A stretch of DNA of 13,864 nt, taken from assembly GCA_964631135.1 (NCBI GenBank), contig CAZVVZ010000008.1:4810-18673 (forward strand), given 5' to 3'. How positions within the stretch are numbered: position 1 is the first letter of the stretch; each line of letters begins with the position of its first letter. Below the pieces are notes generated by a model that searched no databases, was not told the origin of the DNA, and saw only the letters and a program-made list of their open reading frames with translations. The translations under genes and the position numbers were made by a program. The stretch is from an uncultured Eubacteriales bacterium (GTDB lineage Bacteria > Bacillota > Clostridia > TANB77 > RGIG9151). Positions 3,730 to 12,143 of this stretch are shown piece after piece.

Positions 3730-3733
3730 AAAA

Positions 3734-3806
3734 ATATATGCTGTTTTATCGAGACTCAAGATTTGCAACGAAAAACTTTAAAAAGCGATAGTTGTACGAA
3801 AGTCAA
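3734..3806 (+). repeat. Decayed/truncated copy C of the same element (left arm tip plus left half of the core; no right arm)
   Basis: TGTTTTATCGAGACTCAAGATTTGCAACGAAAAACTTTAAAAA (3742-3784) matches copy A 7841-7883 at 39 of 43 positions. TACGAAAGTC (3795-3804) resembles the core TACGGGAAGTC. No complementary right arm follows. Confidence 0.6.
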
Positions 3807-7782: not shown

Positions 7783-7798
7783 TTAAATTATTAAAGAG

Positions 7799-7963
7799 AA
7801 ATCAGTTACTGCTCAAAGCACTATACGAAAATAACATATATGTTTTATCGGAACTCAGGATTTGCGACGAAAAACTTTAAAAAATACGGGAAGTCTGCAA
7901 ATATTCCTTCCTTTTAAAACATATATGTTATTTTCGTATAGTAGTTTGAGCAGTAACTGATTT
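7799..7963 (+). repeat. Long-hairpin intergenic element, full copy A (conserved asymmetric core flanked by 47 bp of arm pairing)
   Basis: 7799-7817 pairs with 7945-7963 (19 bp). After a 2x2 mismatch, 7820-7847 pairs with 7915-7942 (28 bp). The core at 7848-7912 recurs at 11851-11920 and partly at 3741-3806. Strand given is the core orientation, not proven transcription. Confidence 0.85.
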
Positions 7964-8003
7964 ATGATTAAAAACCTATTACCGGTAATCATCAAAGCTT
8001 TTA

Positions 8004-11224: not shown

Positions 11225-11243
11225 AAAATTTTCTGCTAAAAAA

Positions 11244-11335
11244 GGGGCTGTAAAAAACTCCATCTAGATAGCAAATACCTCATACATTTAAATATATGAG
11301 GTATTTACTATTTAGTGGAGTCCTTTTACAGCTCC
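11244..11335. terminator. 92-nt imperfect palindrome between convergent rnc and veg; probable bidirectional intrinsic terminator, and possibly a separate repeat family
   Basis: The arms pair as GGGGCTGTAAAA/TTTTACAGCTCC (11 of 12), ACTCCA/TGGAGT, CTAGATAG/CTATTTAG (7 of 8) and AAATACCTCATA/TATGAGGTATTT (12 bp). The loop is about 10 nt. A6 run at 11238-11243 gives a U-tract for the - strand; TTAATTTTT follows on the + strand. Confidence 0.6.
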
Positions 11336-11351
11336 TTAATTTTTACAGCCC

Positions 11352-11651: not shown

Positions 11652-11680
11652 AGAATAACATAAAAAAACGATTTTGTCAA
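11652..11680 (-). promoter_or_regulatory. Sigma-A-type promoter for veg (extended -10)
   Basis: On the - strand: TTGACA (11680-11675), 17-nt spacer, TGTTATTCT (-10 hexamer at 11657-11652). A second TTGACA lies at 11700-11695. Confidence 0.55.
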
Positions 11681-11811
11681 AGACAGGCGATTATTGTCAA
11701 ATGCACTCTGCAAAAGGTTTTGAATAGGGTTACTAGTTATGTTAATTGGGTAAAAACGACTGTTAAAGCCAAAGTTATTTTATCAAAAAAAATAAAAATA
11801 ATTTTCTTGAT

Positions 11812-11981
11812 AGCTACTGGTCAGAGTACATGAAATAAGATACATGTTTCATCGGAACTCAGGATTTGCAACGAAAGACTTTAAAAAAATACGGGAAGTC
11901 TTTCGGCAAATATTCGTTCCTTTTAAAACATGTATCTTATTTCATGTACTCTGACCAGTGACATATACTCTGACCAGTAAC
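11812..11981 (+). repeat. Long-hairpin intergenic element, full copy B (same core, diverged but still complementary arms, duplicated right terminus)
   Basis: Perfect 34-bp stem 11816-11849/11926-11959. Inner pairings are GGAAC/GTTCC, ATTTGC/GCAAAT and CGAAAGACTT/AAGTCTTTCG, closing a 14-nt loop. The right terminus TACTCTGACCAGT occurs twice (11947-11959 and 11966-11978). Confidence 0.85.
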
Positions 11982-12010
11982 CAACTATGCGAATATTTTC
12001 TGAAAAACAC

Positions 12011-12039
12011 TTGATTTTGCAACAAACTTGTGATATATT
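12011..12039 (+). promoter_or_regulatory. Sigma-A-type promoter for rpsB-tsf (extended -10)
   Basis: TTGATT (12011-12016), 17-nt spacer ending in TGA, TATATT (12034-12039). This predicts a leader of about 100 nt. Confidence 0.5.
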
Positions 12040-12143
12040 ATTTCAGTAAAAAATCACACATACCTATAAACCACTAATGGTGCCGATTTTTCGGTTAGTG
12101 AATGTAAATAGATATGGCGGATAAAACCAAAGGAGGAAAAAAT

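Follow-up and report, generated by a model that had tools for sequence, protein, structure and literature searches.

The DNA analysed here (hereafter the window; 13,864 nucleotides, 33% G+C) carries the housekeeping genes hydrogenase, yebC, U32 peptidase, plsX, acpP, rnc, veg, rpsB and tsf. Between veg and rpsB lies a palindromic element, copy B (11813..11981, no strand assigned), with the termini GCTAC on the left and GTAAC on the right. Two overlapping promoters predicted for veg (11652..11700, − strand; first hexamers TTGACA at 11700 and 11680) and one predicted for rpsB (12011..12039, + strand; TTGATT-17-TATATT with TG, kept in the sister species) lie outside copy B. An earlier note on this DNA had placed the element between these promoters and outside both transcription units; our consensus scan agrees at the level of prediction and places no promoter within 11813-11981, where the note had thought an own promoter possible. 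Just upstream of rpsB, positions 12037-12126 show a sub-threshold match to the t44 / rpsB-leader RNA (22 bits vs a threshold of 44), which fits a conserved S2 leader that has no relation to copy B.

Copy B consists of a left arm of 34 nt (11816..11849), an asymmetric core of roughly 76 nt (11850..11925, + strand) and a right arm (11926..11959) that is the perfect complement of the left arm; the arms, like the whole element, have no strand. The perfect 34-bp stem reported by the earlier note is thus an exact inverted repeat at these coordinates, and it cannot be extended at either end. Within this long stem, the core forms helices of 5 bp (11854-11858/11916-11920), 6 bp (11864-11869/11906-11911) and 11 bp (11872-11882/11895-11905), set apart by the loops TCAGG (11859-11863), AA and ATTC (11912-11915), of which TCAGG and ATTC are conserved. 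The first two helices had been described correctly and the last one measures 11 bp, not the 10 bp claimed. Beyond the right arm, a second tandem terminal motif (11966..11981) repeats positions 11947-11959 as TACTCTGACCAGT (11966-11978) and is followed by AAC; the same sub-terminal iteration is found two to three times in copies K and N. Folded as a single RNA strand (11806-11985), copy B reaches −81.3 kcal/mol (z = −14.5), and none of 200 shuffled sequences was as stable.

The window contains three related features. Copy A (7788..7974, no strand) lies in a gap between convergent genes and has 60-nt arms (7788-7847 / 7915-7974) that are 90% complementary and enclose a core at 7848-7914; its tight hairpin spans 7799-7963, with mismatches at 7818/7944 and 7819/7943. 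Copy C (3730..3785, + strand) is truncated and retains only the inner left arm and the left half of the core. It lies directly 3′ of the hydrogenase stop and overlaps the mechanically called TTG start (3763) of a transglycosylase ORF, whose true start is probably further downstream, past the AAGGTGA ribosome-binding site near 3787. The third feature, between the convergent genes rnc and veg, is a core-less palindrome of 96 nt without spacer (11242..11337, no strand).

Copies A and B differ by paired changes. The seven pair swaps quoted by the earlier note hold up (28 of 28 bases correct), and every pair is Watson-Crick in A and in B. An arm indel is mirrored in both arms, as the note had seen, with a size of 4 nt (1 + 3) instead of the single nucleotide given there. 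The 4-nt deletion in the apical helix of copy A was likewise found.

We recovered the same region from three other ENA metagenome assemblies and from Logan assemblies by exact-protein look-ups. A spurious open frame through the element, searched as protein, reached two more genomic regions and one JGI contig; the look-up of window ORF 60-581 as protein returned no record. The nearest RpsB among reference genomes is at most 78% identical, so the host belongs to a Clostridia lineage that is unrepresented in reference genomes. The source metagenomes appear to be ruminant-associated, and one related contig is labelled bovine.

In ~85 kb of this one uncultured species, the element occurs at no fewer than 14 loci, approximately one per 5-6 kb, and all of them are intergenic. 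Copies A, B, D, E, J, K, M and N are full; C, F, two copies in contig L092 and one half-core copy are truncated, and all five of these retain the left half of the core. A core-less hairpin (L089:1045), the divergent relatives G and H and nested forms are also present. The elements are 145-190 bp long, end in GTTACT...AGTAAC and have arms of 34-60 nt, which form terminal inverted repeats; the copies are dispersed, with unrelated flanks, as in MITEs. B-type arms (ACTGGTCAGAGTACATGAAATAAG...) occur at five loci, namely B, F, K, N and the core-less L089:1045, which places A and B in different arm subfamilies.

Two of the less regular arrangements deserve description. Copies F and G are found in strain S220 only, within a larger insertion of ~3.07 kb (L002 11753-14820) in the tsf-frr gap, downstream of the window end; the insertion contains a gene for an 869-aa C39-family peptidase, carries copy G and the right-truncated F at its left edge and is bordered by a 13-nt near-direct repeat, CAAAT(C/T)AAGTAAT. 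In L092 (1121-1443), a left arm and core without right arm, the full copy J and an inverted arm with 21 nt of core form a composite that could be a nested insertion or a palindromic rearrangement; it is annotated in public data as a 114-aa protein (P0001). Public data contain gene calls (P0001-P0003) for the frame MFYRNSGFATKDFKK, which several copies keep open. We rejected a coding function since the frame is broken by 1-nt and 4-nt indels between copies.

No known family was recognized in the searches that we ran. An Rfam E-value scan of the whole window returned no family (generic microRNA hairpin models stayed sub-threshold, at 45.5 bits vs 130). The exact core pattern had no match in one genome each of 185,579 bacterial and archaeal species and none in a JGI metagenome contig search, which was not exhaustive given that the JGI contig L100 contains the pattern; a looser gapped pattern tolerating helix change found nothing among metagenome or viral contigs. 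Plasmid and phage collections gave no blastn match, and nhmmer and a covariance model found nothing on 80 RpsB-anchored reference-genome loci. B-type copies were absent from 6-21 kb of sister-species loci, where gene order differs. Judged by its sequence, the family thus appears to be new and previously undescribed, and of the bacterial MITE or palindromic-repeat kind.

By eye, no direct repeats that would indicate a target-site duplication were seen beside copies A, B, D, K, M and N, whose exact ends are uncertain and for which no empty site was compared. The Pfam gene lists for the ~85 kb of this species contain no partner transposase. The bounding sequence by which a partner transposase, HUH or recombinase gene would be recognized is GTTACTGGTCAGAG. 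Mobility of the element is therefore suggested solely by the dispersal of near-identical copies.

Among eight distinct copies, mean identity between copies is 0.94 for the cores and 0.76 for the arms, in line with the earlier note's view that the core is the more conserved part; arm divergence is about four times that of the core. Within copies, arm-to-arm identity averages 0.90 and reaches 1.00 in four copies; the fixed 44-nt windows used for this measure extend past the hairpin in some copies, B and K among them. In a MAFFT alignment of the eight copies with an RNAalifold structure, 17 of 41 arm pairs had changed on both sides with pairing kept. Shuffled controls gave 7.4±1.7 such pairs and none of 500 reached 17, while sliding the partner column by 1-3 positions left 0-4. 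Paired arm change is thus in excess across the family, and arm indels are mirrored too. The note had regarded an origin of A and B from two distinct subfamilies as weighing against its reading; the arm subfamilies do differ, which bears this out in part, but paired change is still pervasive family-wide.

The core behaves differently from the arms. From the B type to the divergent copy H, the loops CTCAGGA and AATATTCG are unchanged, and the intervening helices are altered with compensation (ATTTGC/GCAAAT to ATTCAC/GTGAAT in one helix, CGAAAGAC/GTCTTTCG to CGGAAACC/GGTTTCC in the second). The JGI copy L100 retains the same core platform and has a 55-nt apical insert; in the sister-species copy the left loop has diverged. 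Since its architecture is kept in H and L100, the core must be under selection, and the suggestion of the earlier note that it may be a sequence-specific site is plausible. The arms of L100 and H are perfect or nearly perfect over 67 nt and are unrelated to the B-type arms.

Four near-identical strains from different metagenomes could be compared at copy A. In the window strain the core is in forward orientation and the arms carry two adjacent mismatches; strain S216 has the same orientation with the window's two mismatches and a third, and strain S226 has a forward core between perfect arms. In S220 the arms are perfect as well, and the core is the exact reverse complement. The inverted core of S220 has retained the private 4-nt deletion and other private bases of copy A, indicating that copy A inverted in place and was not replaced from another copy.

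Copy N gave a second case. Relative to the sub-terminal repeats, the core has one orientation common to B, K and N of S226 and the opposite one in N of S220, so that the S220 state is derived. Between S220 and S226 the repeat-side arm of N is identical, and the other arm has changed at 3 of the 32 nt available; all three changes in S220 yield the exact complement of the repeat-side arm. Outside the elements, the two strains differ at 25 of 9375 positions (0.27%). Two of the four copies that could be compared with other strains are inverted in S220. Very roughly, the inversion rate per element would be two orders of magnitude above the substitution rate per site, a figure that derives from only two inversion events, both in the assembly of one sample (ERZ27279220).

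We considered, by reasoning from the assembly alone, whether the inversions were assembly artefacts. At k = 141, a single k-mer is long enough to run from the flank through the arm into the beginning of the core, and we therefore take the orientation to be supported by reads. That copy A keeps its private 4-nt deletion when inverted also counts against an artefact. Ectopic conversion from another copy was rejected for copy A only, because the private core features are kept there; it could be the source of the change at copy N.

The family is dispersed, its arms covary, its core inverts in place, and one arm has been rewritten to match its partner. We propose, with a probability of roughly 0.6, that copy B is a non-coding, non-autonomous, MITE-like palindromic element whose arms are kept complementary at the DNA level by template switching. 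The veg-rpsB gap in which copy B lies would be permissive. The paired differences between A and B would have two causes, descent from different arm subfamilies and, within each copy, the maintenance of complementary arms at the DNA level. While the DNA is replicated or repaired, synthesis would jump from the template of one arm to that of the other arm and then return, with the outcome that one arm is copied from the other (homogenisation) and the core is possibly inverted. By our own derivation, synthesis would first move to the other parental strand on reaching the inner end of arm 1 and would switch a second time, back to the original template, at the outer end. The product would carry, between its flanks, arm 1 followed by the inverted core and an exact complement of arm 1, which is the state of S220 at copy N.

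Two reports describe template switching at imperfect inverted repeats as a process that homogenises the arms and inverts the spacer, and through which the repeat can grow (PMC8604942, PMC13100816). The combination of inversion and arm homogenisation in our strains is this known signature, which is why we favour template switching. We infer that it is the underlying enzymology, rather than cruciform mismatch repair or recombination. The earlier note had left open whether the pairing was due to selection for a structure, such as an RNA, or to copying of one arm from the other; the core flips at A and N and the rewritten arm at N speak directly for arm-from-arm copying, and a structured RNA gained no independent support. 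Besides the small number of inversion events and the failure to see a target duplication or a partner transposase, three observations go against the template-switch reading. Conversion alone leaves the approximately four-fold faster divergence of the arms unexplained. The asymmetric loops survive despite a drift toward the perfect palindrome, and selection on the core is needed to account for them. Simple descent and conversion do not explain the unrelated 67-nt arms of L100 and H. Propagation of the element may depend on a protein or other host factor that recognises the core, which would account for the conservation of the core.

Selection on a transcript whose long hairpin serves as bidirectional terminator, stabiliser, RNase III target or small RNA could also give rise to strong arm covariation, and it would fit the core architecture with compensated helices common to the B, H and L100 types, with loops kept from the B type to H. 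Terminators are usual between convergent genes, and gaps of this kind are occupied by copy A, L100 and the palindrome at 11242-11337. Copy B, however, lies outside both predicted transcription units, no promoter or terminator was predicted in the element, and no Rfam family scored above threshold. Gene tables read against the copy matches show a mixed orientation of the core relative to the neighbouring genes, and a core flip in place would alter any RNA. Moreover, the mismatched stem cells comprise 10 G·U and 11 A·C, a ratio of about 1:1 that is expected of DNA transitions and not the wobble excess of RNA selection, and perfect Watson-Crick stems of 34-67 bp are more than an RNA function requires. 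We therefore consider a selected RNA structure improbable, while the copies may have incidental RNA effects. The two core orientations at A and N, seen between samples, could also be produced by an inverton, in which a dedicated recombinase flips the core between the inverted repeats and switches a neighbouring gene on or off. Invertons such as fimS and the RecV-dependent switches of Clostridioides difficile likewise have inverted repeats that flank a segment found in both orientations; here, a conserved inner arm sequence (ATATATGTTTTA) could be the recombinase site, and copy B does lie between divergent genes. Copy A, in contrast, is placed between convergent genes, and neither the Pfam lists of the window nor those of the extended loci contain a site-specific recombinase gene. 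The consensus scan found no promoter-like site in the core and only weak arm matches in A. Unlike invertons, the element has many dispersed copies whose arms differ from one another; its spacer of ~70 bp is short for synapsis, and the arm rewriting at copy N is unlike the product of conservative site-specific recombination. Such a switch is the least likely of the alternatives that we weighed.

In a further alternative, the element would move or be repaired as a single-stranded fold-back, each round synthesising one arm from the other, and might land in the tips of hairpins. The terminal repeats of parvoviruses exist in flip and flop forms, and both flip and flop states of the core exist here. 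Perfect or nearly perfect arms in most copies, including the unrelated arms of L100 and H, would follow from fold-back synthesis, and the failure to see a target duplication and the retention of the same core half in the truncated copies would fit as well, although the latter sample is small (n = 5). We built a covariance model of the core and ran it beyond this species; the single match was an H-like core between rnc and veg in the sister species (87% PlsX identity). Its arms (ATAGCAAATACCTCATATATTTAA; L102 3249-3351) are orthologous to the core-less palindrome of the window at 11242-11337, so that orthologous arms at the rnc-veg site are found with a core in the sister species and without one in the window. 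More distant relatives have simple terminator hairpins only at this site. In the window palindrome, an A-run precedes and a T-run follows the outer stem (GGGGCTGTAAAA / TTTTACAGCTCC), which by its sequence resembles a bidirectional terminator. Only the left half of this outer stem is present in the sister species, as could result if the palindrome grew outward in the lineage of the window. It is conceivable, if doubtful, that the core is the real mobile or functional unit, a single-stranded hairpin whose arms are regenerated by fold-back synthesis, possibly at the tips of old terminator hairpins. If true, this would explain why perfect arms are unrelated between loci, why target duplications are absent, why truncation is one-sided and why orthologous arms occur both with a core and without one. 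However, we found no enzyme, whether nicking, HUH-type or other, B-type arms accompany the core to five loci, and for the flips template switching in place is the simpler explanation. Movement or repair through a hairpin intermediate is thus an unlikely account of the family.

Like the hairpin MITEs Correia of Neisseria, ERIC, RUP and bcr1 of the Bacillus cereus group, the element is a non-coding, intergenic repeat of ~100-200 bp that is multi-copy and lineage-restricted, with terminal inverted repeats round a core and long stable stem-loops. Stem changes that compensate each other have been reported for bcr1, and long stable stem-loops of MITEs at the RNA level have also been described (PMC3184786); the earlier statement that paired change is not expected for a decaying MITE was therefore too strong. 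Unlike in these four families, it is the core that is conserved, while the long arms (34-67 nt) vary; between strains the core flips in place, some members have unrelated arms, and we saw no target duplication. Nor does the sequence resemble anything in the collections searched. Conservation of the core instead of the ends is unusual for a MITE-like family.

Integron attC sites are imperfect palindromes of similar length with structure kept over sequence, a variable apex and GTT/AAC-containing ends, all of which the element shares. The end motifs of attC are RYYYAAC...GTTRRRY. We rejected an attC site since these motifs are reversed here (GTTACT...AGTAAC), neither an integrase nor a cassette array is present, and the genes next to the element are housekeeping genes.

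To our knowledge, template switching has not been described as the maintenance mechanism of any bacterial repeat family. Arm homogenisation, spacer inversion and repeat growth are the features that the element has in common with template-switch mutation at quasipalindromes, as set out in the same two reports (PMC8604942, PMC13100816). Most descriptions of such mutation, unlike what we see here, concern short repeats, either in reporter genes of E. coli or in the genomes of yeast and humans. Near-identical wild strains reveal how a palindromic repeat's pairing is kept up, by arm-from-arm copying and occasional inversion of the core. They also call for caution, in that covariation in repeat hairpins is not proof of a functional RNA.

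Two minor observations concern other repeats and the assemblies. A hairpin motif, GGAGCTGTAAAAAA...TTTTTTACAGCTCC, is present at L102 5020-5080 in the sister species and at 11242-11260 / 11320-11337 in the window, that is, at different loci in each species, and may represent a second, terminator-like palindromic repeat family. In several samples, contigs end inside or beside the arms of A, B, H and N (L085, L086, L087, L088, L091, L094), and the PlsX-bearing contigs of near relatives are mostly only 1-6 kb long. The density of copies probably fragments assemblies of this uncultured Clostridia lineage.
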